Part shown: in pieces, positions 9,313-58,982 of the stretch
How positions within the stretch are numbered: position 1 is the stretch's first letter
Layout of the letters: every line of letters begins with the position of its first letter
From: a virus
Lineage: Duplodnaviria; Heunggongvirae; Uroviricota; Caudoviricetes
DNA length: 64,000 nucleotides
Reading direction: 5' to 3' (one strand)
Virus record (IMG/VR): IMGVR_UViG_2513237251_000004
Position numbers and translations under genes: made by a program
Notes under the pieces: generated by a model
Seen by the model: only the letters and a program-made list of their open reading frames with translations
The model's database searches: none
What the model was told of the DNA's origin: nothing

Positions 9313-9477
9313 ATAGACCTCCTGATGAACTTTGGTGGTGTGGTAGGTGGGAGACCCATTTCGACCTGTTTCGGCCTACTTCAATTCGGCAATAGTCCCG
9401 CAGGCCTCGCCGCTTTACGTGCGACATATTCCCGTCCATGAACCCTTCACCACACCCCAAAGTTCACTTTGGTTATT

Positions 9478-9492
9478 GCGCTTTGTCAGCGC
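9478..9492 (-). promoter_or_regulatory. Candidate nutL boxB hairpin
   Basis: Minus-strand RNA GCGCU-GACAA-AGCGC, 5-bp stem with pentaloop, about 165 nt upstream of N; nearly identical hairpin downstream of cro. Confidence 0.4.
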
Positions 9493-9567
9493 CGTAGATT
9501 CATATTCGAATCGTTGTATATTCACCGCCCTGGTGAGTAATGCGTCCTGCTGACGACGATAATAATG

Positions 9568-9601
9568 AACCAATAGTTCGACATTATCAAGAACTATTGG
9601 T
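9568..9601. promoter_or_regulatory. Perfect 11-bp inverted repeat (possible OL operator or pL-region element)
   Basis: ACCAATAGTTC-(11 nt)-GAACTATTGGT between the stk-operon terminator and nutL. Confidence 0.3.
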
Positions 9602-9772
9602 ACGAATTTTGGTGATTTATTAACTCTACGAAGTATGATTCTGATATATAAGGAAATTTATTTTTGAAAATGTGGCTGATGAAGGTTATGCGGCAGGGAT
9701 CATAACTGCATGGTTTAGCGAGTTACATCAATAAATACAATTGGTTATGTTTTTTAGGTGGGCGAACGTGAG

Positions 9773-9800
9773 GCAAAGAAAACCCGGCGCTGAGGCCGGG
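9773..9800 (-). terminator. Rho-independent terminator ending the cI-stk operon (tIMM-like)
   Basis: CCCGGCCTCAGCGCCGGG hairpin followed by TTTTCTTTG on minus strand, about 170 nt past the stk stop. Confidence 0.55.
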
Positions 9801-9967
9801 CTAGATTTTAAAGTATTTATCTTTTAGAGATGTAGATGTAAAACTTTTCGCCTTTGAAAATTTTTTGTCATCAGAAGGGCTTATGAACTCATCTTTTTTG
9901 TAGGGAACCGCTAATGCTGCATCACGTCTGCGAGGCAGCTTGCTTACTTCCTCGCGCTTTTTCATGA

Positions 9968-11014
9968 TCAGTTATCCTTTAATAACCTATACAGTTTTGT
10001 AGGGGTACATCCTGAGGATATTGTTAAGTTCGTAGCACGCCTTTTCCGCCCATCATCGTATAAACGAAAACCAGTAGTAGACGAATTTTCTGCGTCAAAA
10101 ACTATAGACAGTATAGCGTCCCCAGACTTTTTTTGCCATTCGCATGTGCCGTTAGTTGGTTTCGTCATCTGTAGACGCCAGTCAAGAACGCCATCACTTA
10201 TAGCTGAGAGATCGTTTAGTACATCTAGTACGGATTGATATCTTTCATTTGGATCTACATGAATGCATTTGTTCACTATTGTTATTAATTTTTTATGTAT
10301 ATGGGGAGGATACTCTTTTAATGGATAGCAGCCATTAATTATCGACTCTCTGAGTTGTTCAATCGTGCTAAATGCAGATCTTTCTCTTTCAAAATTATCA
10401 TGTCCAACACACATTCTATATATGGTTAATCCTGCCTGATATATGTCATATGTGAAATTATAATCATTTGTTGATAAAGAAAAATATTCCGGTGGCACAT
10501 GAAAATGATATCCAAACTCAGGCGCAGCTCTCGATTCCTCATTGACTAACTGAGATAATCCAAAGTCAGATAGCATGGCCTCATTTCTGTTTGATATCAT
10601 AATGTTATTAGGTTTTATATCAAAATGCATAAGACCTTTTGAGTGTATATGATAAAGTCCACTTAAAAATTGAATGGAATACCGTATTATCTCCCTGCTT
10701 GTAAGATTATTTTTTTTCATTAATTGGTTTAGCGAACCATTATGATAAAATGGCATGGCTATATAGATATTGCTCTCACATTGAGCAGCATACTGAACTT
10801 GCACAATATTTGGATGTGCATGTTTATAGAGAAGCCTTGCTTCATTAAAGTAGTCGTCGTGGTTAGTGTTTTCTTTTTTTTCTATTTCTTTAATCACCAA
10901 GTCATGAGCTAGGTGTCTGTCATGAGCCAGATATACTTTTGAAAAACAACCCTGTTCTTCTAGATCACTAATCCATTCGAATTCTACATCAGCTCTTTTG
11001 TATGGAGTTAGCAT
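9968..11014 (-). CDS. stk: Eukaryotic-like Ser/Thr protein kinase Stk (phage exclusion)
   Basis: 348 aa with Hanks kinase motifs (VIKEI lysine, HFDIKPNN catalytic loop, SDFG); same position as 933W stk between N and cI. Confidence 0.85.
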   Translation of the reverse strand: MLTPYKRADVEFEWISDLEEQGCFSKVYLAHDRHLAHDLVIKEIEKKENTNHDDYFNEARLLYKHAHPNIVQVQYAAQCESNIYIAMPFYHNGSLNQLMKKNNLTSREIIRYSIQFLSGLYHIHSKGLMHFDIKPNNIMISNRNEAMLSDFGLSQLVNEESRAAPEFGYHFHVPPEYFSLSTNDYNFTYDIYQAGLTIYRMCVGHDNFERERSAFSTIEQLRESIINGCYPLKEYPPHIHKKLITIVNKCIHVDPNERYQSVLDVLNDLSAISDGVLDWRLQMTKPTNGTCEWQKKSGDAILSIVFDAENSSTTGFRLYDDGRKRRATNLTISSGCTPTKLYRLLKDN

Positions 11015-11469
11015 CCCCTTACCTCCGCAGATAGTGCAGCCAAAACAGCTTCATTTGTTTCAGTTGTAAAACCAGAATTATCGATTCCATTTATATTGCG
11101 GTGTGACTTCAATATTTCTTTATACTCGATCTCTGTTAGGTTCAATGATGATTTCATGCCAGATTTTCTAATAGTGTAATATTTTCTTACATCACTGCTT
11201 GAAAATGCTTCTTGAATAACAGCTTCTATATAAAGGCGGTCAATGCTAAGATTATCAGAGTTTGATTCAGTAACGCGTATGGCAGCTAATTCAACATTAT
11301 ATAAATTAAGAATGTCGAGGATGTTATTTCTCACATACTTTAATTTTTCTGGTGTGTCTAAGGTCGAAGGTATTTTAATAACATCAACACATTTGAGTGC
11401 AGACTCATTAGTGCAATATACAACAAAAGATGTAACTTTGGGCGCCGCTCTAACACCTAGTATTCTCAT
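11008..11469 (-). CDS. Hypothetical 153-aa protein translationally coupled to stk
   Basis: Stop overlaps stk start by 7 nt; AT-rich; N-terminus MRILGV... loosely reminiscent of RNase-H-fold starts but without a catalytic Asp; function unknown. Confidence 0.5.
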   Translation of the reverse strand: MRILGVRAAPKVTSFVVYCTNESALKCVDVIKIPSTLDTPEKLKYVRNNILDILNLYNVELAAIRVTESNSDNLSIDRLYIEAVIQEAFSSSDVRKYYTIRKSGMKSSLNLTEIEYKEILKSHRNINGIDNSGFTTETNEAVLAALSAEVRGC

Positions 11470-11520
11470 TTTTTATATCCTATTTTAGAATCAGGCCGCA
11501 TCTCTGCGACCATCCATCAT

Positions 11521-11535
11521 CCAAACGTCTCTTCA
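11521..11535. repeat. 15-bp direct repeat copy 1 (CCAAACGTCTCTTCA) immediately 3' of orf113
   Basis: Exact 15-mer repeated at 11892-11906. Confidence 0.7.
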
Positions 11536-11536
11536 C

Positions 11537-11878
11537 TCATCCGAAGAAGCAGCAATCCGGGTTAGCACGCACAAGCTCAAGCGCATCAGTCAGCGAAAGT
11601 TCAGTACTGTACTGATGCCATTTCATATCCTTCCGCATCCAATAGATTTTCCATCTATCCAGAGAACGTATGTACTTGATTCTTGCTGATGGCAGGATGT
11701 TTGTTTCACCTGGATTGCCCTGCCACACGGGGCGCTGTTCGCCGATATCTATCGTTTGGTCATTGATGCTATAAACAATATCCAGTTCATTGCGGATATG
11801 TTCAGGCGGCCTTATGCTTTCAATGAATTGGTGAACTTCTTTTTTTACTGCTTGATATTCAAGGTCATTGAACGCCAT
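11537..11878 (-). CDS. Hypothetical 113-aa protein between cI and orf153
   Basis: ORF with AAGGAGGA RBS; bracketed by the 15-bp direct repeats. Confidence 0.5.
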   Translation of the reverse strand: MAFNDLEYQAVKKEVHQFIESIRPPEHIRNELDIVYSINDQTIDIGEQRPVWQGNPGETNILPSARIKYIRSLDRWKIYWMRKDMKWHQYSTELSLTDALELVRANPDCCFFG

Positions 11879-11891
11879 CTATCCTCCTTAC

Positions 11892-11906
11892 CCAAACGTC
11901 TCTTCA
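11892..11906. repeat. 15-bp direct repeat copy 2 (CCAAACGTCTCTTCA) between cI stop and orf113 RBS
   Basis: Exact match to 11521-11535. Confidence 0.7.
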
Positions 11907-11938
11907 GGCCACTGGTTACCAGCTATGTGACGATGAAG

Positions 11939-12646
11939 TCACGAACTTTTCAGCCACTCCCTTGCCTCGATGTCATCCAGATGGCGAGATTGCTTCAGAA
12001 TACCAGCTACATACTCCACCTTTGCTACTTGATGATAAGGCAACGTTATAGGCCTGTGATCCTGGTTAATGCTTGTAAATTGGTATTCTCCATCTCTGTC
12101 ATAGCCAAGAACCTTAATCATGTTGTGTCCTTCAACGGTTCTGACAAACACCTCATCACCCGGGAATACTTTGGTGTTAGGCTCAATGAGTACATATTCT
12201 CCTGATTTTATTCTGGGCCACATGCTGTCTCCTTTCACACGAAGACCAAAGGCATCTGGATCATCGCTATAAATTTTGAGCCACCCATCGCGCTCTTCGG
12301 TCATCTCGATGGCACCATCAACACCAAGAATTGCCTCACCAACCACGCGCACTAACCCTTTTTTTAATTTGCCAACAAATGAAAGAGTATCTTCATCATT
12401 CGCTCCATTTAACGAAGTGCCGTGCTGAAGCCAAACAACATCAACGTTTAGAAATTTCGCAAGCGCATTCATTTTTTCCTGACGCGGTAAAGACTCAGCA
12501 TTAAACCATTTGCTAACGCCTTTGGACGAAAGAGAAAGGGCACGGGCTATAGCCATTCCCCTACCATGTTCATCAAGACCAGCTTCTTTACAGGCTTGCG
12601 CTAGCCGCTGGGCGAATTCTTTGCGCACTTTTTCATTCTGAACCAT
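11939..12646 (-). CDS. cI: CI repressor (HTH plus LexA-like S24 autopeptidase)
   Basis: 235 aa; N-terminal HTH region, C-terminal ...GDSMWP... Ser-protease region; divergent from cro. Confidence 0.8.
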   Translation of the reverse strand: MVQNEKVRKEFAQRLAQACKEAGLDEHGRGMAIARALSLSSKGVSKWFNAESLPRQEKMNALAKFLNVDVVWLQHGTSLNGANDEDTLSFVGKLKKGLVRVVGEAILGVDGAIEMTEERDGWLKIYSDDPDAFGLRVKGDSMWPRIKSGEYVLIEPNTKVFPGDEVFVRTVEGHNMIKVLGYDRDGEYQFTSINQDHRPITLPYHQVAKVEYVAGILKQSRHLDDIEAREWLKSS

Positions 12647-12724
12647 GAGTACGATACTAAAGCACTTGCAAAAACTTTCAGTTCAACCATAATACGTACT
12701 GAAAGTACGAAAAAGGATATTCCT
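12647..12724. promoter_or_regulatory. OR/pRM/pR divergent control region
   Basis: 78-bp cI-cro intergenic region containing palindrome CGTACT-GAA-AGTACG (12695-12709) and related ACTTTCAGT element. Confidence 0.5.
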
Positions 12725-12952
12725 ATGCAAAATCTTGATGAGCCGATTAAAGGTGTCGGCATCCCTGAAGTTGCGAAGGCTTGTGGAGTTAGCGAAAGGG
12801 CTGTCTATAAGTGGCTCAAAAACGGCTTCCTCCCTAAGACTGAGTTTTTTGGGAAAACTAAATACGCATCAAAAATCGAAGAGATTTCTGGTGGCAAATA
12901 TCAAGCAAGCGAAATGCTTGAAATAAGCAAAAAGAACCTTCTGGCTGCATAA
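12725..12952 (+). CDS. cro: Cro repressor
   Basis: 75 aa, HTH GIPEVAKACGVSERAVYKWLKNG; divergent from cI. Confidence 0.8.
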   Translation: MQNLDEPIKGVGIPEVAKACGVSERAVYKWLKNGFLPKTEFFGKTKYASKIEEISGGKYQASEMLEISKKNLLAA

Positions 12953-13090: not shown

Positions 13091-13390
13091 ATGGAACAAA
13101 CAAGTTACAGCAAACTATCCCAGCGTGACGTTGATCGCGCAGAAACTGATTTACTCATCAACCTGTCAACGCTTACCCAGCGTGGTCTGGCAAAGATGAT
13201 TGGCTGTCATGAATCGAAGATAAGCAGAACGGACTGGAGGTTTATTGCTTCGGTCTTGTGTGCTTTCGGAATGGCATCAGACATCAGTCCGATTAGCAGG
13301 GCTTTTAAGTATGCGCTTGATGGACTCACCAATAAAAAACGCCCGGTGTGCAAGACCGAGCGTTCTGATCAAATACAAATGGAATTTTAA
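13091..13390 (+). CDS. cII: CII transcriptional activator
   Basis: C-terminus TNKKRPVCKTERSDQIQMEF closely parallels lambda CII. Confidence 0.75.
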   Translation: MEQTSYSKLSQRDVDRAETDLLINLSTLTQRGLAKMIGCHESKISRTDWRFIASVLCAFGMASDISPISRAFKYALDGLTNKKRPVCKTERSDQIQMEF

Positions 13391-13412: not shown

Positions 13413-13556
13413 ATGCGAAAAACGCAGGAAAATAAACGCGTTAATCACCGAAAAGATGTGCTACGTGACCAGTTTTATCAGGGGGTTAATCCAGCAATAG
13501 CTGTGCCACTGAGAGAAATACTTAACAGGTACAAAACTTCGGAGAAGTCAAAATGA
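13413..13556 (+). CDS. Small basic hypothetical protein (47 aa)
   Basis: Internal ATG with GAGG RBS; longer track ORF overlaps cII in another frame. Confidence 0.3.
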   Translation: MRKTQENKRVNHRKDVLRDQFYQGVNPAIAVPLREILNRYKTSEKSK

Positions 13557-14329
13557 GCATGAATCTTATGGCTAAGGCCATGAATATAAAGGTTGGCAAC
13601 CCACTGAGAAAACTGGTTCTGATTAAACTTGCCGATAACGCCAATGATAATGGCGAATGCTGGCCTTCATATCAACATGTCGCTGACCAGTGTGAGGTGA
13701 GCAGATCGACAGTAAAAAGTCACATTAGGGCACTGGAAGAGATGGGGCTTTTGAAAAGGGAATTCAGAAGAAAAGGAGAGCTTAACCAGTCAAACGTTTT
13801 TTATCTGACGCTGGATAATGCACAACAAATCCAACCAGAATCAGGTGGGGCAGGAGCTGCCCGGGGTGGGGCAGGAGCTGCCCTAGGGGGTGGGGCAGGA
13901 GCTGCCCCCAGAACCTATCACTCTTTTGAACCAGTCAATGAACCTAAAAACATTATGTTCGAACATGTCCGAACAGAGTGTGAAAAAACTCCTGACCGTC
14001 ACGAAGAAACCGACAAGGCATTCGAGGAAATATTCTGGTGTGCAGGCATGCGGAAAGCCGGGAAGAAAAACGCAGCTTCAGCATTCAGAACACAGTTCAG
14101 GGAATGGCGTAAAACTACCAGGGGGACGGCAAGCGAGTTTGCCACGATGCTGGCAGAAGACATTGCGTGCAGGCTCGGTAAGCAGTTCGGGTTCGACAGG
14201 TTGTTACCATCGAGCTACCTGAACGGTCAACGCTGGAACGACGAGAAGCCAGAAACTATTCAACCACAATCCAAACCATCATCCGCAATCACCGTATCGA
14301 AAACTGGCTACGTGTTTTTCGACAGGTGA
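13553..14329 (+). CDS. Replication initiator, O-like (HTH N-domain with iterons inside the gene)
   Basis: N-terminal wHTH-like region; iteron array in mid-gene encodes GGAGAARGGAGAALGGGAGAA. Confidence 0.65.
   Translation: MSMNLMAKAMNIKVGNPLRKLVLIKLADNANDNGECWPSYQHVADQCEVSRSTVKSHIRALEEMGLLKREFRRKGELNQSNVFYLTLDNAQQIQPESGGAGAARGGAGAALGGGAGAAPRTYHSFEPVNEPKNIMFEHVRTECEKTPDRHEETDKAFEEIFWCAGMRKAGKKNAASAFRTQFREWRKTTRGTASEFATMLAEDIACRLGKQFGFDRLLPSSYLNGQRWNDEKPETIQPQSKPSSAITVSKTGYVFFDR
13844..13906. repeat. Origin iterons: three copies of GTGGGGCAGGAGCTGCC followed by an AT-rich stretch
   Basis: Copies begin at about 13845, 13866 and 13890. Confidence 0.6.
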
Positions 14330-14439: not shown

Positions 14440-17346
14440 ATGACTCCAAGTGAACTGAGCGACCTGCTTTGGGCGCAGGTTGACAGGGTGGCTCCGCACC
14501 TGTTGCCAAACGGCAAGAAAGAGGGGCATGAGTGGGTTGCCGGTAACGTCAACGGTGACAAGGGAAACAGCCTTAAGGTCAACATTAGCGGCAAGAAAAA
14601 ATGGGCTGATTTCGCTGAGGGAGACGGCGGTGACATGCTTGATTTGTGGATGGCATGTCGTGGAATTAACCTGCATCAGGCTATGCAGGAAGCGAAAGCA
14701 TTTCTCGGTATCAAGGATGACGATCACCATTTCGATGCCAAACGTGAGAAAAAATTCTCCAGACCTGACCGCAAGAAAATCGCCCGCTACGTTACCAGAA
14801 CAGAATCCCATCTTGAGTACCTGCAATCGCGTGGCATATCGCCAGAAATCGTAAAGCGCTACGAGGTTGTCAGCGGCAAGGTGTGGAATGGAGAGCGGGA
14901 ACTGGATGCTCTGGTGCTTCCGTACAAACGCGATGGTGAGTTGTTGCAGGTCAAGCGAATCAGCACTGAGCGCCCGGACGGGAAGAAAGTCATTATGGCA
15001 GAAGGTGATTGCGAACCTTGTCTGTTCGGATGGCAGGCTCTGGACGCTGGCGTGAGGGCGGTTGTACTTTGCGAAGGCGAAATTGATTGTATGAGCTATG
15101 CGCAATACGGCATCTCGGCGTTATCCGTGCCGTTTGGTGGCGGGAAAGGCGCTAAGCAGCAGTGGATTGAGTTTGAGTATCACAACCTCGACAGGTTTGA
15201 GGAAATATTCATCTCGATGGACGTTGATGATGTTGGTCGTGAAGCCGCAAGGGAAATCGCAAGCCGACTCGGTGAACATCGTTGCCGTCTTGTTACTCTG
15301 CCGTACAAAGACATCAACGAATGCCTGATGAACGGTGTTACCGAGGATGAAATCTGGCAGTACATCGGCACGGCATCCTATTTCGATCCTGAAGAACTCT
15401 ACAGTGCGCGAGAGTTTTACCAGGACACTATCAACGCTTTCTACGGCAAGAAGCAGTATCTGTTTAATCCACCGTGGGAATCTCTGGCAGATAAATTCCA
15501 GTTCCGTGAGGCCGAGTTGACGCTGGTCAATGGTGTGAACGGTCACGGAAAGGCATGCCCACTGAATGAGCCTATTCTTTTAGCTGATGGGACATGGACT
15601 ACTCACGGGGATGTAAAAATTGGCGATCAGGTGGCGTCAGTAGACGGCAATCCGTCAACTGTCACTGGGATATTCCCGCAGGGTGTTAGAGATGTTTACC
15701 GAGTCACATTTGAAGATGGTCGTTATGTTGATTGCGCAGGCGATCACCTATGGGAGGTCACTAGTCGTGGATTCACGAAAGGCGAGAAACGCCGCGTGAT
15801 TGACACCTTCGAGCTGAAGCGGTTGAGTGAAACGAAGAGGCACAAAAATGGCGTTAGGATTCCTGAAATAACTGGTGACTTTGGCGACCACTCAGAGCCA
15901 TTAGCATGGGTTATCGGCTCCCTTCTCGGGGATGGTAGTCTTAGCAATGGGAGCGTGAAGTTTTCAAACGTCGAGCCATACATGATCGAGCGTATGAAGG
16001 CTGAACTGCCTGATTACAACTTCTCTGGAGATGGTAAGGACTGGCTGATATCAACGGCGCGTGGTCAGGCAAATCCACTCATGGAGACCCTGCGAGGTTA
16101 TGGACTAATGGGGTGCACAGCAAAAAACAAATTCATCCCTCGTGTGTTTTTTTCCGCAAATAAATCAACGCGTATAGGCATGCTGTGTGGTCTGCTTGAA
16201 ACGGATGGGTATGTCGAGAAGGATGGAACGCTTGTTTTTTCCTCAGCAAGTGAAGAACTGCGCAATGGGGTTGTTCAACTGGTTAACTCACTCGGCGGGT
16301 CATGCCGGACGCGAGTTAAAACTGGCGTGACATACACATACAAGGACGATAAGCGGCATGGGATGGATTCATACGAGGCAAGAATCAGACTGACAAGAGA
16401 AATCAGGGAGGCCATCCGTTCACCACGACTCAATGGCAGATTAACTGCGCATCGATTCGAGGGCTGTGGGGTATTCGTCAGGAATGTTGAAAAAATCGGC
16501 AATGCAGAATGCTTGTGTATTATGGTCGATCACCCTCGCCACCTGTATGTAACCAGGGGATATGTGGCGACGCATAACACCGAGGTTGTCGGGCATATGG
16601 CACTTGAGGCAATGCGTCAGGGTGTGAAGACGTGCATCGCGTCACTTGAGCTGAAGCCTGGTATTCTCCTTAAGCGCCTTACCCGTCAGGCGACGTGCTG
16701 CAAGATGCCGCCAGTGCTGGAAATTGACTCTGCATTTAAATTTTATGACGAAAGACTTTGGGTGTTTGGCCTGACCGGAACGGCGAAAGCCGACAGGCTG
16801 ATCGAAATATTCGACTACGCTCGCCGCCGATACGGTATCCAGTTATTCATCATCGACAGCCTGATGAAATGTGGCATAGGCGACGATGACTATAACGGGC
16901 AGAAGGCGTTTGTTGACTCGATTTGCGACTTCAAAAACAAAACAAACTCCCACGTCATTCTCGTTACTCACTCGCGAAAAGGAGACAGCGAAGAAAAACC
17001 AACCGGGAAAATGGACGTAAAAGGCTCTGGAGCGATAACAGACCTGACAGACAACCTTTTCATCATCTGGCGTAACAAGGCTCGCGAGAGAGCGTTACAG
17101 AGAGTTCAGAGTGGTGAAAAGATGTCAGAGAAGGACGAACAGCTACTGGCATCTCCGGCATCTGTTTTGATGCTTGAAAAACAACGTAACGGCGAAGGTT
17201 GGGAAGGTGGTGTCCCGTTGTTCCTTGACGAGCAATCGCACCAGTTCCTGCAACTTGAATCAGGATCGCCATATAGCTACATCGCCAATATGCCGAAATC
17301 GGAATATGACGAGGCGTGGCGACAGGAAAACGTGACGGAGTATTAA
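14440..17346 (+). CDS. Primase-helicase (TOPRIM plus DnaB/SF4-type helicase) interrupted by an intein
   Basis: TOPRIM-like VVLCEGEIDCMSY ... ISMDVDDVG; helicase motifs LFIIDSL, VTHSRK, LEKQRNG; Walker A GVNGHGK split by the intein. Confidence 0.75.
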   Translation: MTPSELSDLLWAQVDRVAPHLLPNGKKEGHEWVAGNVNGDKGNSLKVNISGKKKWADFAEGDGGDMLDLWMACRGINLHQAMQEAKAFLGIKDDDHHFDAKREKKFSRPDRKKIARYVTRTESHLEYLQSRGISPEIVKRYEVVSGKVWNGERELDALVLPYKRDGELLQVKRISTERPDGKKVIMAEGDCEPCLFGWQALDAGVRAVVLCEGEIDCMSYAQYGISALSVPFGGGKGAKQQWIEFEYHNLDRFEEIFISMDVDDVGREAAREIASRLGEHRCRLVTLPYKDINECLMNGVTEDEIWQYIGTASYFDPEELYSAREFYQDTINAFYGKKQYLFNPPWESLADKFQFREAELTLVNGVNGHGKACPLNEPILLADGTWTTHGDVKIGDQVASVDGNPSTVTGIFPQGVRDVYRVTFEDGRYVDCAGDHLWEVTSRGFTKGEKRRVIDTFELKRLSETKRHKNGVRIPEITGDFGDHSEPLAWVIGSLLGDGSLSNGSVKFSNVEPYMIERMKAELPDYNFSGDGKDWLISTARGQANPLMETLRGYGLMGCTAKNKFIPRVFFSANKSTRIGMLCGLLETDGYVEKDGTLVFSSASEELRNGVVQLVNSLGGSCRTRVKTGVTYTYKDDKRHGMDSYEARIRLTREIREAIRSPRLNGRLTAHRFEGCGVFVRNVEKIGNAECLCIMVDHPRHLYVTRGYVATHNTEVVGHMALEAMRQGVKTCIASLELKPGILLKRLTRQATCCKMPPVLEIDSAFKFYDERLWVFGLTGTAKADRLIEIFDYARRRYGIQLFIIDSLMKCGIGDDDYNGQKAFVDSICDFKNKTNSHVILVTHSRKGDSEEKPTGKMDVKGSGAITDLTDNLFIIWRNKARERALQRVQSGEKMSEKDEQLLASPASVLMLEKQRNGEGWEGGVPLFLDEQSHQFLQLESGSPYSYIANMPKSEYDEAWRQENVTEY
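15556..16578 (+). other. LAGLIDADG-type intein (about 341 aa) within the helicase P-loop; N-terminal boundary uncertain by one codon
   Basis: Starts (A)CPLNEPILLADG..., two LAGLIDADG blocks (VIGSLLGDGSL, MLCGLLETDGYV), ends ...LYVTRGYVATHN followed by Thr. Confidence 0.6.
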
Positions 17347-50531: not shown

Positions 50532-50564
50532 TTCACGATATTCCATTAATACCATTTCCTGATG

Positions 50565-50589
50565 CCCGGCCATTGTGCCGGGTTTTTTT
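50565..50589 (+). terminator. Rho-independent terminator preceding the giant gene
   Basis: CCCGGCCATTGTGCCGGG plus TTTTTTT. Confidence 0.55.
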
Positions 50590-50600
50590 ATGGAGTCTGT

Positions 50601-53600
50601 ATGGCCTATTCAGAGGAACAGCGTCCTGAGGCGCAACTCGGTAACCAGAATCGTAACAGCCTGAACATTCAGCAACCCGGCGAAACTGACAGCTATGAAG
50701 CATTTTTCTCTGATCCGAATCGCTGGAAGGATAACAGTACGTCGTTCAGCCTGGGCGATGTATTGCCAACAATGGGTAAAGGTTTCGCCCAGTCCGTCCG
50801 GGGAACAGGGGAAATGGCCCGTGGACTCGGTGATGCGATGATTCAGAGCCCGGTAAAAACAGGGGCGCGTATTTTAAATGAGTTCAGCCGTATGGGGCTG
50901 CCGGGTGTCGCAACTGTGCAGGATATTTTTGCCGGTGGCAGCAGGGGGGCTGATGAGGTCATCGATACCCTGCCTGATGGCAAAAACGCGGTTACTGATA
51001 TTGTCGGTAAAGGTCTGAAGGCAACCGGTAAGGCTGTCAGTGATGGTGCCAAAGCCACTGATGAATGGCTGACCGGTAAGATGTCGCCGGGTGCAGTTCG
51101 TGCGCTGAATACGCCGATGACCGAAGGCTATAATGATTCTGCGGTCTGGGTGGCGAAGGGTGTAAACCTGATTGGTGCGCTTGTACCTGATATGGTTGCT
51201 GGCGGTGTGGCTAGAAAGGTGGGTGATGTCACACTGCGAAAAATGCTGACCGCCGGGCTGGAGAAAAAATACATCGCGGCAGGGATGCAGCCGGAAAGAG
51301 CCACGGCACTGGCAGCAGAAGCTGTCGATAAAAAAATGCCGGATTTATTCCAGGCGGGCCTGATCACCCATTCCACTGTAAGTGCACAGGGGCAGAGTGC
51401 AATGGCGGCAGCAGATGCTGTTCTTAATGCTGATTACTCTGAGCTGGCGCAGTCACCGAAATTTCAGCAGACGTTTTTGTCCATTGACGCCGACCCGCAG
51501 CACGCACAGCTTACTGATCGCCAGAAAATGGATCTGGCAAAAGAGCGTGTTGCCGATGAGGTGCGCGCGCAGCTGGCAACCGATCCTGAATTGCTGGCTG
51601 TGAATGCCATGGCGGCAAAACTGGGTGACGCACAACTGTTTAATCTGGTGACACGAGGCACAGCGAAGACCGTTAAAAGCGGCATTGTCAGAAATGCCAC
51701 GGAACAGGGGGCGATTAATGCGGCGCAGGGCGGCTATTCACGCTATCAGGAAAACACGGCATTGCGTGAGACCGCCGGAATGGGTGTGTCACCGTGGGAG
51801 GGCGTGGCTGACGCAACGATCGAAGGTGCAGCCTTTGGTGCTGCGATGGGGGCTCCATTCGGTGCGGTTGCCGGATATCGTGGCAGACGTCAGGCCGCAG
51901 AAGAAACCGCCATGCGTGATGCTGAAACCGTGCAGCAGGACGACGCAGCCCCGCAACCAGAATCTGTTGATCCGGTGGCGCAGCAGCGTGAATCCATGCA
52001 GGGCATGAATCGCGAGCAGCTTCTGGAGCAGTATGCTGATGCGGATATGGCAACAGAGGGTGACGCATCCGCAGCTCATCGCCGGGAAGCTGCCAGCCAG
52101 TTGTTGAATGAACTGGACGAACAGACGAAGCGACAGGCTGTGATGAATGAGCTGAAGGCGAAGCCGCGTTCTGAACTGCTTGAGGAATACCGCAGACTCA
52201 GCCAGAAAGAGGGGCGCACCGAGACTGAAGAACAACAGTTTCAGGCAATACGAGAAGTCATTCGCCCACAACAGGAAGTGACGCCGGAAGCACAGTCACA
52301 GCCTGAAAATGCGGAGGATGGTAACGGGAGCATTTACCCGACGGTGCGGTTCCGGGACCCGAATGAAGTCCGCATTGAAATTAACGGGAATGGTGCGTCC
52401 AGACCAGCGGAACGCATTGAGAAGGTGCGCCCGGACAACCGTTATTTCACGGATGAGAAAAGCGCCATGGGGAGTGATGTTTTCCGTAATGCCGCCGCCA
52501 CCGGCCTGAAACCGTCCGTAGTGAAGAAAGGCGAGAATCAGTATGCCGTTGAAATGGATAATCCTGCGTTCTCTGAAGATGTGGCAACGGAAACCATTAA
52601 CACCCTGGCTGACGGAGAGCGTATTGCTGATGCTGACCCGATGGAGCAGCCCGCGTTCATGCGTGACCCGCGATTCCGTGGTTTCACGGGGGATGATACG
52701 GAGGTACAGGCCCGCCTTGCCCGTGGCAACGCGCCGACGGCAGAGGAGCTTGTACGTTCACAGATGGCTGAAGGTGATGCCGGTCCGACAGCACAGGAGT
52801 TAACTGAGCGTCCACGCCTGCCCGCTCCCGGCGATATTCATCCCGGACAGGGATATCCGTTACCGGGAGAAGTGGCGCGTACGCCGGATGAAAATCAGGC
52901 CGGACGTGGTGGTCGTTTTACCACAACCGGTGAGGTTAAGGGCCAGAGTTTCCAGAAAGGACAAGCTCCGGCACCGGAAAACGCCGCTGGTCGCCAGGGG
53001 GAAACACTCGAGGGTGACATGGTTCGTCGTGGTCTGCCGTCACCGGATGCGCAGAACGCGACAGCACCGGTACGTGAAGGGCTACCGGCTCCTGACATTG
53101 CGCGTAATGTTCGTATGCCTCAGCCTGAATCACTTCCCCGCACTGTACGGGACTCACTGCCTGAGCTTGCACAGCAGGCAGAAGTACGCCGACAGGCCGG
53201 AGGAAATCGTGACATCCCGCAGCCTGAGACAATCGCACCTGAATCTGAAACAACTGTCTCTACTGACAGGGAAGCTACCGTGCGCGGAGGTGAAGTCAGG
53301 GGCAAAAAAATTGAAGACTTTGGTGAAGAAATTAAGGGCGCGGCAAAACACCGTTATGCACAGCTTGCTGAAACACTGGGTAAAACGCTGGAAGACAGGG
53401 ATTATGCCACGCAGCCGCTGAGCAAACTGTTCCCGAAACCGGACTACGCAAAACTGGCGAACGAAGGTGCTGATGCTGATACCCTGGCAATGATAGCGCT
53501 GTATCGTAGCGATATTCCGGCGAAGACGAAACACAATACGGCAGGCTGGGGGGAGAGCATAAAAAAAGTACGACACAGTGTATCGGAAATGCTGAACGGA

Positions 53601-56600
53601 ACGGTCAGCGCGAAACGCCTCGCAGAATGGATGGAAGGCAGAATGCCCTCCCGTTACGCGGATACCTGGCAACTGTTACGCACTCTGCCACCCTCACAGA
53701 TGGACAGGGCTTCTGCTTATCGGGTGGTATCGGGTGTGTATCAGGCGGCAGGAGGGAAGCGTTACGATCCGCCACAGAAACTTTATTCACTGCGCAATAA
53801 GGACAATAAGGGGAGTAACCTCTTTTTCTCGGAAAGCAGGGATGAATTACTGGCAAAGGCGAAAGTCTGGTTTGCAGAGCAGGAGGAAAAATCACAGGCG
53901 AAAGGTGATGAAAAAACAGCACCGTCACCGGATGACAAAATCCGCTTTGACGTTTACCGGAATACCCGCAGTGGCGATATTTTTATCGCTTACGGTAAAA
54001 ACAAAATGCGGGTGAGAGGTGGCTTTAAGTCAGCCAGTGATGCGCGTAAGTACATTGATTCACATCGTGATGAGCTTGTTCGTCATGTGAAGGAGATGCG
54101 GGAGATTTCGCGTGAGGAGCAGCGCAACGCCACCAACCGCGACCGTACCGGACCAGAACGCCGCAAGGGGAATGTTTCACCGGAGCAGTTCAGTGATGCG
54201 TTTGGTTTCCGTGGTGTGCAGTTTGGTAACTACGTGGAAGGTCCGCGTCGTCAGGCTGATTTGAACCGGGCTTATGACTCGCTGCATGACCTTGCGGAAG
54301 TACTGAATGTACCGACAAAAGCGCTTTCCCTGAACGGTCGTCTTGGCCTGGCATTTGGTGCCCGTGGTAAGGGTAAGGCGGCGGCACACTATGAGTCAGG
54401 TGAGGTGGCAATCAACCTGACAAAAGGTAACGGACCGGGTGCGCTGGCGCACGAATGGTTCCATTCTCTGGATAATTATTTTGGTCGTTATGACGTTTCC
54501 AATGACGGGAAAATTACGTCAGGTGGCGACTTTATGACGGAAGCACAGCGTGTCAGGCGCATATTTAAAGACGGCAGGTATGTTGATGCTGAATATCCGG
54601 TACGTCAGGAGGTTTACGACGCTTTTAAAGGTGTGATTCAGGCCATTAAAAACAGTGACATGCCGCGTCGTTCAGCGCTTCTCGATAAGGTGCGCTCAAA
54701 ACCGTACTGGTCAACGGATGTTGAAATGGCGGCACGTGCCTTTGAGCGTTATGTTCAGGATAAGGCGCGTATGGCTGGCGTGGAGAATGATTATCTGGTC
54801 AATATCCGTAAGGCACCTGAGCACAACACAGATAACACCTACGCTTATCCGACGAATGCGGAACTGGATGGCGGTATTCGTGAGGCATTCGATCACCTGT
54901 TCCGCACCCTGAAAACCCGTGAGACGGACAAGGGCGTTGCGTTTTATTCCCGTAAGGGCGTTACCCGCACACCTGAAGGTAATCTCATTTCGGATGTTAA
55001 CCGTAGTGCGGAAGCCAAAGGCAGCCCGGTCCCGCAGGTTGAAGCGGTTGCCCGTGGCGTGATGAGCGGCATTAAGGACAGTGACCTGAAGGTCCGTGTG
55101 GTGAAGTCACAGAAAGAGGCTGAAGCGCTGGCGGGTGAATTGTTCGATGGTTACGGCAGGGTGCACGCATTCTATCGTCCGGATAAACGAGAAATTGTCC
55201 TGGTGGCGGATAACATCCCTGACGGGCGGACCGTTCGCGAGAAGCTGCGTCACGAGATCATTCACCATGCCATGGAGCATGTTGTCACACCAGCGGAATA
55301 TCAGACGATTATCAAAACCGTGCTGAAAACCCGCGACAGTGATAACGTCACCATCCGTGAAGCCTGGCGTAAGGTTGATGCTTCCTATGGTAAGGAATCA
55401 CCGGAAGTACAGGCGGGTGAATTTCTGGCACATATGGCGGAGAAACAGCCGAATAAATTCGTGGCGGCATGGGAGCGTGTTGTTGCCCTGGTCAAAGGGG
55501 TACTGCGTCGTACGGGGTTACTGAAGCCGACGGAACTGAACGATATCAGACTTGTTCGCGAGACCATCCGTACGTTAGGCCAGCGTGTGCGGGAAGGTTA
55601 CACGCCGCGTGAGGATGGCGCGGGCGCATCGTTTCAGTACTCCCGTAGTGGTAAACGTGATCCGTTCAAAGTGCCGGAAGGTGAGGGCGAGCGTTATCGT
55701 GATGACCTTGCCAGAATGATGAAATCTCTGCGCACCACAGATTTAACGGTAAACATCGGGCGTACGCCGCCGGTATTGCGTCACCTTGGTGCACCGGATT
55801 TGCCGCTGGTTATTTCCCGCGATACTGTGCGGAAGGCCACCAATGGTGTGAAACATGTGGTGCCGATGGATGTTATCGAGAGACTACCGGAACTGATGCA
55901 CGATCCGGATGCAATTTACCGCTCAGCGACAGAAAGAAATGCGGTTGTGATGCTGCTTGATGCCGTGGATAAAAATGGTGATCCGGTGGTGTCAGCGGTA
56001 CACATGAAGGCTGTCCGGTCGCGTCTGGAAATCAACAAGGTAGCTTCTGTTTACGGTACAGAAAATGGAAAAAAACTGAAGAGTATGGAAATGACCGGGT
56101 TAACGTTGTACCGGAGAGAAAAATTAAGCCGCGATAACCTTCTGCACAGAGGGCTCCAATTGCCCAAAGGGGAACATTCTTATCGCGGCTCTGCGGATAA
56201 AATACTCTATCCTGAAGATATTCGCAAGGGGCCGTATTACTCCCGTACCAGCAGTCTGACACCGGAAGAGACAATTGCATCGCGTTTTGTGCGCCAGATG
56301 CAGGATAAATTCCAGGTGCTGAAAGCTGTTCAGGAGAATATCCGTAAAACTGGCGGCAAAGTGGACGACAGTAACAACGCTTATATGGCGGAAGAACTCT
56401 TCCACGGGAAGGCGGAAAACGACCTGAACGTGATGAAGGAGCGCTACGTTCAGCCACTGGCTAAATTACTGGCGGACTACAAAATTGCGCAGGCCGATCT
56501 GGATGAGTACCTCTACGCCCGTCACGCGCCGGAACGTAACGCGCATATCGCGAAAATCAACCCGAAAATGCCGGACGGCGGTTCGGGGATGACCAACGCG

Positions 56601-58982
56601 GAAGCGGCGGAAATCATGCAGCGTGTACGTAACAGTGGCAAACAGGCACAGTATGACCGTCTGGCAGGGATTATTGACGATATGCTGGCCCGTCGCCGTG
56701 AGCTTATCCGTGAGGCCGGACTTGAAGAGAACGGTGTGGTGGATGCCTGGCAGAACGCCTACCGTTACTACGTTCCCCTGAAAGGTCAGGATGTTGACGG
56801 TGTGGTGTCACTGCCCCGTACAGGTAAGGGCTTCACCATCGGCGGACGTGAAAGCAGGCAGGCCATGGGGCGTGCATCCCGGGCACAGTCTCCGTCCACT
56901 CAGGCGATACAGGACCTGAGCGAATCGCTGATCCGCCATCGCAAAAACGAAGTGGGTAACGCCTTCCTGAAACTGGTGCAGGATAATCCCGACAAGGATT
57001 ACTGGCAGGTATTCACCGATGACAGACCGGATACCATGCGGACGATTGCAGAGCGCAAGGACCAGGAAACTGGTGAAACCATTCGCGAAGTTGTCGAACG
57101 CCCTGTACCGATGGCAATGATGGCAGACCGGTACTTCACCACCAAAAAGAACGGCAAAACGTACTACATCAAACTCCATGATCCGCGCCTGATGCGTGCG
57201 ATGAAGAGTATGGGACCGGAAACCAGCAATGCCTTTGTTCGTACGCTGGGGAAAGTTAACCGCTTCCTGGCAACGGTGAACACGTCGTATAACCCGGAAT
57301 TCCTGGTCAGTAACTTCATCCGTGACGTGCAGACGGCGGTGATGAACCTGAAGGCGGAGCAGGGAAGGAGCGACGGTAAACTGAAAGGGCTGGATAACTT
57401 ATCCGCCCTGGCTGTGGTGAAAGACAGCCGTTCTGCCATGTCAGCCGTATACGCCAGTCTGCGTGGTAAAACCCTCACGGGAAAAGGTGCACAGTGGCAG
57501 AAGGTGTGGAAAGAGTTTGTTGAGGACGGAGGGAAAACCGGCTGGTTTAACATGGGTGACCTTGAAGGCCAGCAGAAGGAAATGGATCGCCTTGTCTCAC
57601 TGGCGAAGGGGGGATGGAAAGGCCAGAGTATCGGTGCATGGAATTCGTTCCTTAACCTTGTCGAGGATGCCAACGGTGCGGTTGAAAACGCTCTGCGTCT
57701 TTCTGCCTATAAGCACGCCCGTGATGCCGGTTTGTCACGCCAGCAGGCGGCGTCTCTTGCCAAAAACATGACGGTGAACTTTAACCGTCGTGGTGAGCAG
57801 GGGGCGCTGATGAATTCGCTGTACATGTTCGCCAACGCCAGCATTCAGGGAACGGCAAATCTGGTGAGAACGCTCGGACATCTTAATGGTGAGGGACCTT
57901 TACTGGAGCGCCTTCGCTGGAAGAATCTGAATGTTCCGCAGAAAATCGCGCTTGCCGCTGTGGGAGCAGGTTATCTGCTTGGCTCGCTTAACCGCAGCGT
58001 GGCGGGTGAGGATGATGACGGGGTTAACTGGTATGACAAGGTGCCGTCTCATGTGAAAGAGCGTAACCTCGTCATTATGAAATCGGTGTTCGGGGGCAAG
58101 GCCGGAGAGTACTGGAGTATTCCTCTGCCTTACGGGTACAACGTTTTCTTCCTGCTCGGGCATACTGCTGAAGGTGTGGCGGCGGGTGACCTGACGGCGT
58201 CCCGTGCTGCCGGTAATGTTGTTGGTGGTGTGCTTGGTGCATTCAGCCCGATTGGCAGTGAGACGTCGGAAACACTGTCCGGGGCATTGCTGAAAAATGC
58301 AGCGCCGACCATTCTGCGTCCGTTTGCGAACCTTGCCATGAATGAAAACTTCATGGGGGCGCAGATTTACCAGGAGAACATGCCGTTTGGTACACCAAAA
58401 CCTGACAGCCAGCTGGGAAGACGTTCAACGCCAGAAGCGTACAAGGCGTTTGCATCCTGGCTGAATGCGTTCTCAGGTGGCAGCCAGTACCGTCCCGGCG
58501 CGGTGGATATCACACCGGAATCGCTGAAATTCTGGATTGACTATATCTCCGGAGGGACAGGGCGCTTCATTTCCAAAACCACGGATGCGGCGGTGAAATC
58601 GCTGAATGGTATTGATATACCGGAACAGCAGGTGCCCTTCCTGGGGAAAATTTCGGGGGAGGTGATGCCGTATGCAGACCAGCAGAAGATGTACGACCGG
58701 ATGACAGAGATTGCGCAGTATCACGCAGAGCTGAAGAGTCTGACCGGTGCAGAAAGAACGGCGTTCATTGACGAGAACAACGGAAAATTGTCGATGAACG
58801 GGCTTATGCAGGATACCCGGAAGAGACTGAAGGATTTGCGTAAACAGCGTGATGCCATTTACGCCGACAGTACTCTCAGTCTGGCGCAACAGTCGGCGAT
58901 GGTGAAATCGGTAGAGCGGGATATGAAAATTGCCGTGGATCGGTTTAACCGCGAGTACAACAAAAAAGTGGGAGTGGATTAA
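50601..58982 (+). CDS. Giant virion-associated protein (2793 aa) with internal HExxH zincin-like motif
   Basis: ATG at 50601 after terminator with GGAG RBS; uninterrupted frame of 8.4 kb; GALAHEWFHSLDNYFG near residue 1290. Confidence 0.65.
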   Translation: MAYSEEQRPEAQLGNQNRNSLNIQQPGETDSYEAFFSDPNRWKDNSTSFSLGDVLPTMGKGFAQSVRGTGEMARGLGDAMIQSPVKTGARILNEFSRMGLPGVATVQDIFAGGSRGADEVIDTLPDGKNAVTDIVGKGLKATGKAVSDGAKATDEWLTGKMSPGAVRALNTPMTEGYNDSAVWVAKGVNLIGALVPDMVAGGVARKVGDVTLRKMLTAGLEKKYIAAGMQPERATALAAEAVDKKMPDLFQAGLITHSTVSAQGQSAMAAADAVLNADYSELAQSPKFQQTFLSIDADPQHAQLTDRQKMDLAKERVADEVRAQLATDPELLAVNAMAAKLGDAQLFNLVTRGTAKTVKSGIVRNATEQGAINAAQGGYSRYQENTALRETAGMGVSPWEGVADATIEGAAFGAAMGAPFGAVAGYRGRRQAAEETAMRDAETVQQDDAAPQPESVDPVAQQRESMQGMNREQLLEQYADADMATEGDASAAHRREAASQLLNELDEQTKRQAVMNELKAKPRSELLEEYRRLSQKEGRTETEEQQFQAIREVIRPQQEVTPEAQSQPENAEDGNGSIYPTVRFRDPNEVRIEINGNGASRPAERIEKVRPDNRYFTDEKSAMGSDVFRNAAATGLKPSVVKKGENQYAVEMDNPAFSEDVATETINTLADGERIADADPMEQPAFMRDPRFRGFTGDDTEVQARLARGNAPTAEELVRSQMAEGDAGPTAQELTERPRLPAPGDIHPGQGYPLPGEVARTPDENQAGRGGRFTTTGEVKGQSFQKGQAPAPENAAGRQGETLEGDMVRRGLPSPDAQNATAPVREGLPAPDIARNVRMPQPESLPRTVRDSLPELAQQAEVRRQAGGNRDIPQPETIAPESETTVSTDREATVRGGEVRGKKIEDFGEEIKGAAKHRYAQLAETLGKTLEDRDYATQPLSKLFPKPDYAKLANEGADADTLAMIALYRSDIPAKTKHNTAGWGESIKKVRHSVSEMLNGTVSAKRLAEWMEGRMPSRYADTWQLLRTLPPSQMDRASAYRVVSGVYQAAGGKRYDPPQKLYSLRNKDNKGSNLFFSESRDELLAKAKVWFAEQEEKSQAKGDEKTAPSPDDKIRFDVYRNTRSGDIFIAYGKNKMRVRGGFKSASDARKYIDSHRDELVRHVKEMREISREEQRNATNRDRTGPERRKGNVSPEQFSDAFGFRGVQFGNYVEGPRRQADLNRAYDSLHDLAEVLNVPTKALSLNGRLGLAFGARGKGKAAAHYESGEVAINLTKGNGPGALAHEWFHSLDNYFGRYDVSNDGKITSGGDFMTEAQRVRRIFKDGRYVDAEYPVRQEVYDAFKGVIQAIKNSDMPRRSALLDKVRSKPYWSTDVEMAARAFERYVQDKARMAGVENDYLVNIRKAPEHNTDNTYAYPTNAELDGGIREAFDHLFRTLKTRETDKGVAFYSRKGVTRTPEGNLISDVNRSAEAKGSPVPQVEAVARGVMSGIKDSDLKVRVVKSQKEAEALAGELFDGYGRVHAFYRPDKREIVLVADNIPDGRTVREKLRHEIIHHAMEHVVTPAEYQTIIKTVLKTRDSDNVTIREAWRKVDASYGKESPEVQAGEFLAHMAEKQPNKFVAAWERVVALVKGVLRRTGLLKPTELNDIRLVRETIRTLGQRVREGYTPREDGAGASFQYSRSGKRDPFKVPEGEGERYRDDLARMMKSLRTTDLTVNIGRTPPVLRHLGAPDLPLVISRDTVRKATNGVKHVVPMDVIERLPELMHDPDAIYRSATERNAVVMLLDAVDKNGDPVVSAVHMKAVRSRLEINKVASVYGTENGKKLKSMEMTGLTLYRREKLSRDNLLHRGLQLPKGEHSYRGSADKILYPEDIRKGPYYSRTSSLTPEETIASRFVRQMQDKFQVLKAVQENIRKTGGKVDDSNNAYMAEELFHGKAENDLNVMKERYVQPLAKLLADYKIAQADLDEYLYARHAPERNAHIAKINPKMPDGGSGMTNAEAAEIMQRVRNSGKQAQYDRLAGIIDDMLARRRELIREAGLEENGVVDAWQNAYRYYVPLKGQDVDGVVSLPRTGKGFTIGGRESRQAMGRASRAQSPSTQAIQDLSESLIRHRKNEVGNAFLKLVQDNPDKDYWQVFTDDRPDTMRTIAERKDQETGETIREVVERPVPMAMMADRYFTTKKNGKTYYIKLHDPRLMRAMKSMGPETSNAFVRTLGKVNRFLATVNTSYNPEFLVSNFIRDVQTAVMNLKAEQGRSDGKLKGLDNLSALAVVKDSRSAMSAVYASLRGKTLTGKGAQWQKVWKEFVEDGGKTGWFNMGDLEGQQKEMDRLVSLAKGGWKGQSIGAWNSFLNLVEDANGAVENALRLSAYKHARDAGLSRQQAASLAKNMTVNFNRRGEQGALMNSLYMFANASIQGTANLVRTLGHLNGEGPLLERLRWKNLNVPQKIALAAVGAGYLLGSLNRSVAGEDDDGVNWYDKVPSHVKERNLVIMKSVFGGKAGEYWSIPLPYGYNVFFLLGHTAEGVAAGDLTASRAAGNVVGGVLGAFSPIGSETSETLSGALLKNAAPTILRPFANLAMNENFMGAQIYQENMPFGTPKPDSQLGRRSTPEAYKAFASWLNAFSGGSQYRPGAVDITPESLKFWIDYISGGTGRFISKTTDAAVKSLNGIDIPEQQVPFLGKISGEVMPYADQQKMYDRMTEIAQYHAELKSLTGAERTAFIDENNGKLSMNGLMQDTRKRLKDLRKQRDAIYADSTLSLAQQSAMVKSVERDMKIAVDRFNREYNKKVGVD

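Follow-up and report, generated by a model that had tools for sequence, protein, structure and literature searches.

Inteins of class 3 are defined by the lack of a nucleophile at position 1 together with a Trp at B:12, a Cys at F:4 and a Thr at G:5 (PMC3196547, PMC5050341). In these inteins it is the Cys at F:4 that attacks the N-terminal junction, generating a class-specific branched intermediate (PMC3196547, PMC5050341; for the role of Cys F:4 see also PMC6195587). The bond between the Lys and the Thr of the Walker A motif is a 'classic' P-loop intein site (PMC5050341), which corresponds to site b of DnaB (PMC6195587), and the inactivity of a precursor whose P-loop is interrupted has been assumed for the DnaBi1 intein and demonstrated for the RadA intein (PMC6195587). 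According to Kelley et al. (2016, PMC5050341), inteins seem to be lacking in E. coli and Salmonella, and Smith et al. (2012, BMC Genomics 13:311, PMC3430580) reported that the P protein of phage 24B has an intein, with HintN located between the TOPRIM and GP4d helicase domains. Here we have examined a stretch of 64,000 nucleotides (nt) of a tailed virus (Caudoviricetes; IMG/VR record IMGVR_UViG_2513237251_000004), hereafter the window, in which the primase-helicase gene at 14440-17346 is interrupted in its Walker A motif by the segment 15553-16578, both on the plus strand. The intein in this gene is already known (PMC3430580); what we add are its borders, its class, its distribution and a second, related intein. 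We consider it very probable that the segment is a bifunctional class 3 intein, that is, a HINT domain with a nested LAGLIDADG endonuclease in the Walker A motif of a gp4-like helicase, which would splice as proposed below and probably homes.

Borders of the insertion

The open reading frame (ORF) at 14440-17346, as given in the ORF list, encodes a precursor of 968 amino acids (aa) including the intein and corresponds to gene P of phage 24B, the replication protein of beta subtype Stx2a phages. A megablast comparison with phage records showed that its DNA is 100% identical in Stx2a_F403, F451, vB_EcoP_24B and phiXuzhou21. Full-length matches of at least 99% were found in eight records (Stx2a_F403, Stx2a_F451 twice, the P gene of vB_EcoP_24B, phiXuzhou21, Min27 twice and Stx2_16002), and Klebsiella phage phiKp_30 matched over the full length at 98.4%. 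Another pattern was displayed by 30 phage records, whose match is split into two pieces and accounts for about 65% of the query (1881 of 2907 nt). Alleles that are 98.4-98.7% identical in DNA lack exactly 1026 nt. An uninterrupted gene of 626 codons is found in Sf101, Stx2a phage EH2086 and Salmonella phage epsilon34, where it reads GVNGHGK-TEVVGH (the hyphen marks the insertion site), and mEp043 provides a further intein-free allele, 98% identical.

A preliminary description of this DNA, made from the letters alone, had proposed a LAGLIDADG intein of 341 aa starting at a Cys (15556-16578) in the Walker A motif of the primase-helicase, and had flagged that its first residue might be either Ala or Cys. 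In-frame translation of this span gives CPLNEPILLADG...YVATHN (341 aa), with GVNGHGKA before it and TEVVGH after it, so that the predicted YVATHN end followed by Thr was confirmed. Since the intein-free alleles read GVNGHGK-TEVVGH, the insert comprises 342 aa, from Ala372 (nt 15553) to Asn713 (15553-16578, plus strand; intein numbering 1-342), which is the 1026-nt gap seen against Sf101, EH2086 and epsilon34. The alignment cannot slide, because Lys differs from Asn and Ala from Thr. Hence, the intein-free homologues bore out a clean insertion between Lys and Thr of Walker A, one residue longer than proposed: removal of 342 aa restores the P-loop GVNGHGKT, whereas taking out 341 aa from the Cys onwards would produce GVNGHGKAT, a sequence that does not qualify as Walker A. 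Had the segment been an integral domain, homologues would carry it, and alleles 98% identical do not. A precise in-frame insertion bordered by K-A and N-T and missing from close homologues is what is expected of an intein. We also looked for a compositional anomaly of the insert and saw none, the guanine-plus-cytosine fraction being 0.48-0.51 both within and outside it.

The host helicase restored by removal of the insert

The insert separates an N-extein of residues 1-371 (14440-15552, plus strand), which aligns to T7 gp4 and contains the Toprim primase and the start of an SF4 helicase domain ending in GVNGHGK (15532-15552), from a C-extein (16579-17346, plus strand) that starts at Thr+1 (16579-16581), at once the Walker A Thr and the predicted splice nucleophile. 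When the 342 residues were removed in silico, the resulting protein aligned without a break over the junction to T7 gp4 (5IKN, E=3e-23; 6N7I) and Twinkle, its best solved relatives. At the junction, LTLVNGVNGHGKTEVVGH pairs with VIMVTSGSGMGKSTFVRQ of T7 gp4, GHGK-T matching GMGK-S. Pfam analysis of the unspliced precursor identified Toprim_2 (residues 209-296, E=3e-12), LAGLIDADG_3, Hom_end and Hom_end_hint within the insert, and no more than part of an AAA domain beyond the insert, while in the spliced 626-aa protein AAA_25 (357-507) and DnaB_C (355-594) became contiguous. The protein thus shows the order of an SF4 primase-helicase, in which a RecA-type helicase domain bearing Walker A and Walker B comes after Toprim. 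The Walker B motif LFIIDSL, pointed out in the preliminary description, is present at 16843-16863 (plus strand) and pairs with VIILDHI of T7 gp4. The other motif named there, the arginine finger QRNG, lies at 17176-17199 (plus strand) as KQRNG, inside the DnaB_C match; we take it to be the counterpart of T7 gp4 Arg522 by motif analogy, the phmmer alignment ending before it. Because the intein splits Walker A between the invariant Lys and the Mg-binding Thr, ATPase activity of the unspliced protein is implausible.

Class 3 signature and intein family

The insert contains the blocks required of a splicing HINT domain, A, B, F and G, together with a C-terminal His-Asn and a Thr at +1. Block A, ACPLNEPILLADG (15553-15591), starts with Ala1, which is not a nucleophile, in register with A1 of 6BS8. 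Block B, GDHLWEV (15739-15759), comprises His65 (B:10) and Trp67 (B:12), and block F, ECLCIMVDHPRHLYV (16507-16551), comprises Cys322 (F:4, nt 16516-16518), the predicted initiating nucleophile and branch point. Block G, GYVATHN (16558-16578), supplies Thr340 (G:5), His341 and Asn342 (G:7); all four blocks are on the plus strand. With no Ser, Thr or Cys at position 1, the complete WCT triplet (Trp67, Cys322 and Thr340) and His65 at B:10, the insert has the sequence attributes of class 3.

Comparison with solved structures pointed in the same direction. The best matches of a phmmer search against the PDB (E down to 5e-10) were the class 3 DnaB P-loop mini-inteins 6RIX and 6RIY of M. chimaera and 6BS8, the DnaBi1 intein of M. 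smegmatis. The alignments pair HLW with HQW, CLCIMVD with VRCVEVD and ATHN with PTHN, and are in register from the first residues; counted from Ala1, His65 and Trp67 are numbered as their equivalents in DnaBi1.

To describe the family, a word-indexed protein search was of little use, as it returned six matches only. When the intein was compared exhaustively by HMMER with 1.84 billion cluster representatives, 16,992 relatives were detected at E<=1e-3, 2,951 of them at E<=1e-30, a similarity that is not due to chance. The top 150 were mostly proteins of about 800 aa in which the intein directly follows the ...RPxMGK of a DnaB helicase, others being PhoH-like or multi-intein proteins. We aligned the query with 130 full-length relatives from these representatives (131 sequences), nearly all of the relatives being inserted at P-loop GK-T/S sites. 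His at B:10, Trp at B:12, Cys at F:4 and Asn at G:7 were invariant (131/131 each), Thr at G:5 occurred in 129 sequences and the penultimate His in 130. Position 1 was Ala in 100 sequences, Glu in 14, Pro in five and Cys in three. Position 2 was Gln in 101 and Leu in 24, and Cys in the query alone. Pro at position 3 (105/131) and Leu at position 4 (99/131) also prevailed, as did, in the exteins, Lys at -1 (120/131), Gly at -2 (119/131) and Thr at +1 (120/131, with Ser in ten). By sequence, the nearest solved relatives are of class 3, and the signature is carried by all 130 nearest representatives. Membership of the monophyletic class 3 clade, as judged from these relatives, is tentative.

We then considered a canonical class 1 intein with Cys373 (nt 15556) as its first residue, whose N-S acyl shift would be carried out by this Cys and whose product would read GVNGHGKA-TEVV. 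Cys373 would be a competent nucleophile, and the Cys, with the hydrophobic stretch and the 'ADG' after it, looks like a class 1 block A. However, no Ala lies between Lys and Thr in the intein-free alleles, and the product would be devoid of the Walker A Ser/Thr after Lys. Moreover, the Cys falls at position 2, usually Gln or Leu, and Pro3 and Leu4 agree with the consensus only when residue 1 is Ala, as also indicated by the DnaBi1 numbering of His65 and Trp67; the WCT signature, in addition, is complete. The class 1 reading was thus ruled out by the intein-free alleles and the family register, and we give it next to no credence. The Ala/Cys ambiguity was real and is settled in favour of Ala1, so that Cys, proposed earlier as the first splicing residue, sits at position 2 of an intein with a class 3 signature. 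The suggested mutation of 'Cys1' is accordingly aimed at the wrong residue, the predicted nucleophile being Cys322.

A LAGLIDADG endonuclease nested in the HINT domain

The middle of the intein, residues ~85-302 (15805-16458, plus strand), matches the Pfam families LAGLIDADG_3 and Hom_end and aligns by phmmer to PI-SceI (E ~1e-6). The two LAGLIDADG-type blocks that had been noticed from the sequence were recovered as LAWVIGSLLGDGS (15901-15939, plus strand; intein residues 117-129, with Asp127) and IGMLCGLLETDGYV (16174-16215, plus strand; residues 208-221, with Asp218). An AlphaFold2 model of the intein, built from a 46-sequence alignment, reached a mean predicted local distance difference test score (pLDDT) of 96.1 and a predicted template modelling score (pTM) of 0.93. 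In this model, helices 118-127 and 204-218 terminate at Asp127 and Asp218, as expected of LAGLIDADG enzymes, where two helices of an alpha-beta-beta-alpha-beta-beta-alpha fold each end in a catalytic acidic residue. Within the family alignment, Asp127 is conserved in 110 of the 131 sequences and Asp218 in 130, Asn replacing the first Asp in 18. Foldseek placed the bifunctional inteins PI-SceI (E=9e-17, TMq 0.73), TliVMA and PI-PfuI at the top of its PDB matches, followed by the class 3 mini-inteins 6BS8 and 6RIX (TMt 0.74-0.79), and the free LAGLIDADG enzymes I-DmoI and I-OnuI matched the middle part of the model. Between the window intein and its phiKp_30 copy, codon changes were 17 synonymous and seven non-synonymous, small numbers that are compatible with purifying selection. 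Judged from its sequence and model, the predicted endonuclease is likely to be active.

Distribution and recombination around the intein

We found the intein DNA in 78 of 5,426 complete E. coli genomes, in every case at 99% identity or more and in the primase-helicase gene. The junction region of this gene was present in about 289 genomes and uninterrupted in 209-210 of them, so about one quarter of the E. coli alleles bear the intein. Essentially no genome seemed to contain both an intein-bearing and an intein-free allele (78 plus 209 of 289), an absence that carries no information, as the number expected by chance is only about three.

Comparison of five intein-containing with three intein-free alleles showed an open reading frame in all five of the former. 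The most informative was that of O111:H8 TW05614 (1388-4294 of extract L007), which differs from the window at 16 of 1113 nt in the N-extein and at eight of 768 in the C-extein, and at none of the 1026 nt of the intein. About 13 intein differences would be expected at the extein rate (Poisson P ~2e-6). As an identical intein lies in exteins that are 1.3% apart, we conclude that the intein moved recently. The N-extein of TW05614 shows a single difference from that of the intein-free phage EH2086, the wobble base at -1 beside the junction; the N-side crossover lies between -40 and -1. On the C-side, window-like markers extend to about +252 and are followed by the EH2086 type. The C-extein of TW05614 also carries four private substitutions at +114 to +136, which suggest a third parent or error-prone repair. 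The mosaic pattern of this allele is that expected from homing with short co-conversion tracts, but ordinary lambdoid recombination may also have produced it.

The bases flanking the insertion also distinguish both kinds of allele. At the wobble flanks (15550-15552 and 16579-16581), four E. coli intein alleles read AAG before and ACC after the intein, phiKp_30 reads AAA and ACC, and the three intein-free alleles read directly are AAA-ACG. The combination AAG-ACC without intein, the footprint of a precise loss, was not seen in the E. coli genomes with a junction probe, the best full-length matches listed being 98.3% identical with two mismatches each. The AAG/ACC flanks may represent a co-conversion footprint of minimal size, or else help to determine the endonuclease site. 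Around the insertion site, about 50 base pairs (bp; 15535-15552 plus 16579-16610) are identical in intein-free alleles of E. coli and of Salmonella phage epsilon34, whose C-exteins are about 80% identical overall, and this conserved flank is a plausible endonuclease target.

These data bear on a second alternative, namely, that the intein splices but has lost its endonuclease activity, patchiness arising from vertical descent, lambdoid recombination and occasional precise loss. Degenerate endonucleases are common among inteins, the first LAGLIDADG Asp is replaced by Asn in some relatives, lambdoid genomes are highly mosaic, and phiKp_30 has diverged from the window in intein and exteins in parallel (26/1026 and 26/1881 differences), as under vertical descent. 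On the other hand, both catalytic Asp residues are kept in a domain modelled with high confidence, synonymous changes prevail over non-synonymous ones, and two extein backgrounds share an identical intein, the N-side crossover being 40 bp or less from its border, a distance within which a random breakpoint in the 1113-nt N-extein would land about 4% of the time. We regard an inactive endonuclease as unlikely, but as an alternative that deserves to be kept in mind.

Proposed splicing and homing pathway

According to the bifunctional class 3 reading, the 968-aa precursor, with its P-loop split, would be unable to form the ATP site. Cys322 (F:4) would attack the Lys371-Ala372 bond to give a thioester branch, the N-extein would be transferred to the side chain of Thr714 (+1), cyclisation of Asn342 would free an intein of ~38 kDa, and an O-to-N shift would yield a 626-aa helicase with the intact P-loop GVNGHGKT. 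Replication of the phage would then depend on protein splicing, as the preliminary description had anticipated. Homing probably starts with cleavage of intein-free alleles in co-resident lambdoid phages, by either the free intein or the precursor, after which repair would copy the intein in. Such homing would require expression during lytic growth in a cell that holds an intein-free allele, a situation plausible in poly-lysogenic E. coli.

Several points weigh against this reading. Block B reads AGDH instead of the DxxH of the M. smegmatis DnaBi1 intein, at a position that varies in the family, and recombination around the intein could also be ordinary lambdoid mosaic exchange. In addition, Smith et al. 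(2012) describe the function of the 24B P intein as untested (PMC3430580), which leaves room for the insert being a decayed, non-splicing relic or an integral domain, with a protein that either works unspliced or is dead and replaced by host functions. Non-splicing class 3 relics do exist, such as Arsp-FB24 Arth_1007, which has neither Cys F:4 nor His B:10 (PMC3196547). In our case, by contrast, all catalytic positions are intact and the frame is open in the five alleles compared, the insert splits Walker A, which makes an unspliced ATPase implausible, and the alleles that are 98% identical without the insert argue against an integral domain. Furthermore, phages carrying the precursor gene propagate: phage 24B, with an identical P gene, does so and multiply infects host cells (Smith et al. 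2012, PMC3430580), from which we infer that a working helicase is made and that the intein must splice in E. coli. Taken together, we consider a relic or an integral domain very improbable.

A related intein in a second helicase

A second intein, of 339 aa and 50% identical to that of the window, was found in about 49 other Stx2a phage records (e.g. LC487996.1 and the LC616xxx series) and in 24 other E. coli genomes of the 5,426 (O157:H7, O121:H19 and others). It begins with AMALSEG and ends with ECLCIMVSH...IVTHN followed by TELAL, and is of class 3 type, with Ala1, the ECLCIMV...THN blocks and the same P-loop site, GK-TE. Its host is a P22-gp12-type DnaB-like helicase, which lacks a primase and has the N- and C-terminal domains of DnaB; in LC487996.1 the intein occupies 3001-4017 and the helicase coding sequence (CDS) 2398-4791 of extract L005. 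Counterparts of this helicase without intein are present in P22, HK544 and Stx2c phages. In the annotation, the match is covered by two PGAP features, named DnaB N-terminal and DnaB C-terminal domain proteins. As related inteins reside in two helicases, this intein lineage has moved between two helicase families of lambdoid phages.

Genomic context and annotation

Annotation of the encoded proteins and transfer RNAs (tRNAs) indicated that the window is a short-tailed Stx2a prophage, in keeping with the earlier assignment to an Stx2 phage: Stx2A, with its RIP domain, is encoded at 23026-23985. Three tRNA genes with anticodons CAT, TCG and TCT (22684-22935) are directly upstream of stx2A, a eukaryote-like Ser/Thr kinase is encoded at 9968-11014 on the minus strand, and a polyvalent protein of 2806 aa with LPD1, LPD5, LPD38 and MuF_C domains at 50562-58982. 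The tRNAs upstream of stx2A, the kinase and the polyvalent protein form a set typical of 933W/24B-type Stx2a phages. A NanS-type esterase is also encoded in the window.

In the early region, 5' of the precursor gene, cII (13091-13390) is followed by a gene for a helix-turn-helix initiator (13553-14329). Inside the latter, a tandem repeat at 13844-13907, with a period of ~24 bp and 2.9 copies, encodes a Gly/Ala-rich stretch; the analogy with the iterons within lambda O suggests that it may be the origin of replication. In phiKp_30 the copy number of this repeat is apparently different. Within the intein, two ORFs run antisense on the minus strand (15744-15983 and 16275-16502), which we assumed to be incidental.

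The intein is unannotated in GenBank and RefSeq records of the same gene, RefSeq naming the product 'toprim domain-containing protein', so that current gene labels make it invisible in annotation. In the Min27 record the gene is broken into two CDS (P and ORF31) and the match is 2909 nt long versus 2907, which suggests a frameshift or a sequencing error. InBase presumably has an entry 'EP-Min27 Primase'; a full-text literature search for 'EP-Min27' gave no match. Nor did a literature search for 'EH2086'.

Splicing, phage replication and toxin output

Stx2a phage subtypes are defined by their replication protein, and Stx2 titre follows the subtype (Ogura et al. 2015, PMC4645166). In that study the beta phages VT2-F403 and VT2-F451 gave titres of 6,400-12,800 versus 25,600-80,000 for gamma phages, beta being among the lower producers. 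Both beta phages carry the primase-helicase gene of the window, whose intein is unmentioned by Ogura et al. (2015, PMC4645166). The intein of M. smegmatis DnaBi1 is reversibly shut off by oxidation and zinc via its catalytic Cys (PMC6195587, PMC7360933). In the phage intein, Cys2 (15556-15558), which is unique among the 131 sequences, adjoins the scissile bond, and Cys320-Leu-Cys322 (16510-16518) forms a CxC pair at the predicted nucleophile. Judging by their positions, these cysteines could constitute a redox or metal switch. A redox trap of the M. smegmatis type, the Cys48-Cys118 disulfide, was considered and discarded, as it is not conserved, the residue equivalent to Cys48 being Val48. That slow or conditional splicing, sensitive to redox state or metals, gates the replication of beta Stx2a phages, and hence Shiga toxin release, is a speculative idea to which we assign a low probability. 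Beta-type Stx2a phages that are naturally free of the intein exist (EH2086 and EH2085), and such phage pairs with and without intein allow a test of whether protein splicing affects phage replication and Shiga toxin output.

The element is of a textbook kind and its existence in this medically notable group of phages had already been published. In contrast with the absence suggested by Kelley et al. (2016, PMC5050341), a P-loop class 3 intein in a prophage replication helicase occurs in about 2% of the 5,426 complete E. coli genomes (78 plus 24), and the intein-bearing prophages include Stx2a phages of O157:H7, O111:H8 and O121:H19. This literature and that on Stx2a phage subtypes (Ogura et al. 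2015, PMC4645166) have so far been unconnected. A native E. coli class 3 intein with an endonuclease is, in addition, a resource for mechanistic and engineering work.

Comparison with described inteins

The closest described element is the intein of 24B gene P, which is the same gene with 100% identical DNA. Its published span is residues 372-702, versus 372-713 here, and the report gives neither class, nucleophile, endonuclease status nor distribution (PMC3430580).

With the bifunctional inteins PI-SceI, TliVMA and PI-PfuI, the phage intein shares an architecture in which a LAGLIDADG endonuclease interrupts the HINT domain. These inteins use class 1 chemistry (Cys1), reside in other host proteins, are larger, have an extra DNA-recognition region and are ~16% identical to the phage intein.

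The mycobacterial class 3 DnaB P-loop inteins (M. smegmatis DnaBi1, 6BS8; M. chimaera DnaB-1, 6RIX and 6RIY; Mle DnaB) have in common with the phage intein Ala1, His65, Trp67, Cys F:4 and the THN end. They occupy the same site between the Walker A Lys and Ser/Thr, the +1 residue acting likewise as splice nucleophile (PMC6195587). They differ in being mini-inteins without endonuclease that interrupt a cellular DnaB, whereas the phage intein resides in a gp4-like primase-helicase, and in having Ser rather than Thr at +1 and DxxH rather than AGDH in block B. The Cys48 that forms the redox disulfide of M. smegmatis DnaBi1 has Val48 as its counterpart here.

Finally, the DnaB intein of mycobacteriophage Bethlehem, the class 3 prototype, can be likened to the window intein by its description. 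It belongs to an actinobacteriophage lineage, unlike the intein of this lambdoid Stx phage, and is likewise phage-borne, with the WCT motif and Cys F:4 as obligate nucleophile (Tori et al. 2010, as cited in PMC3196547).

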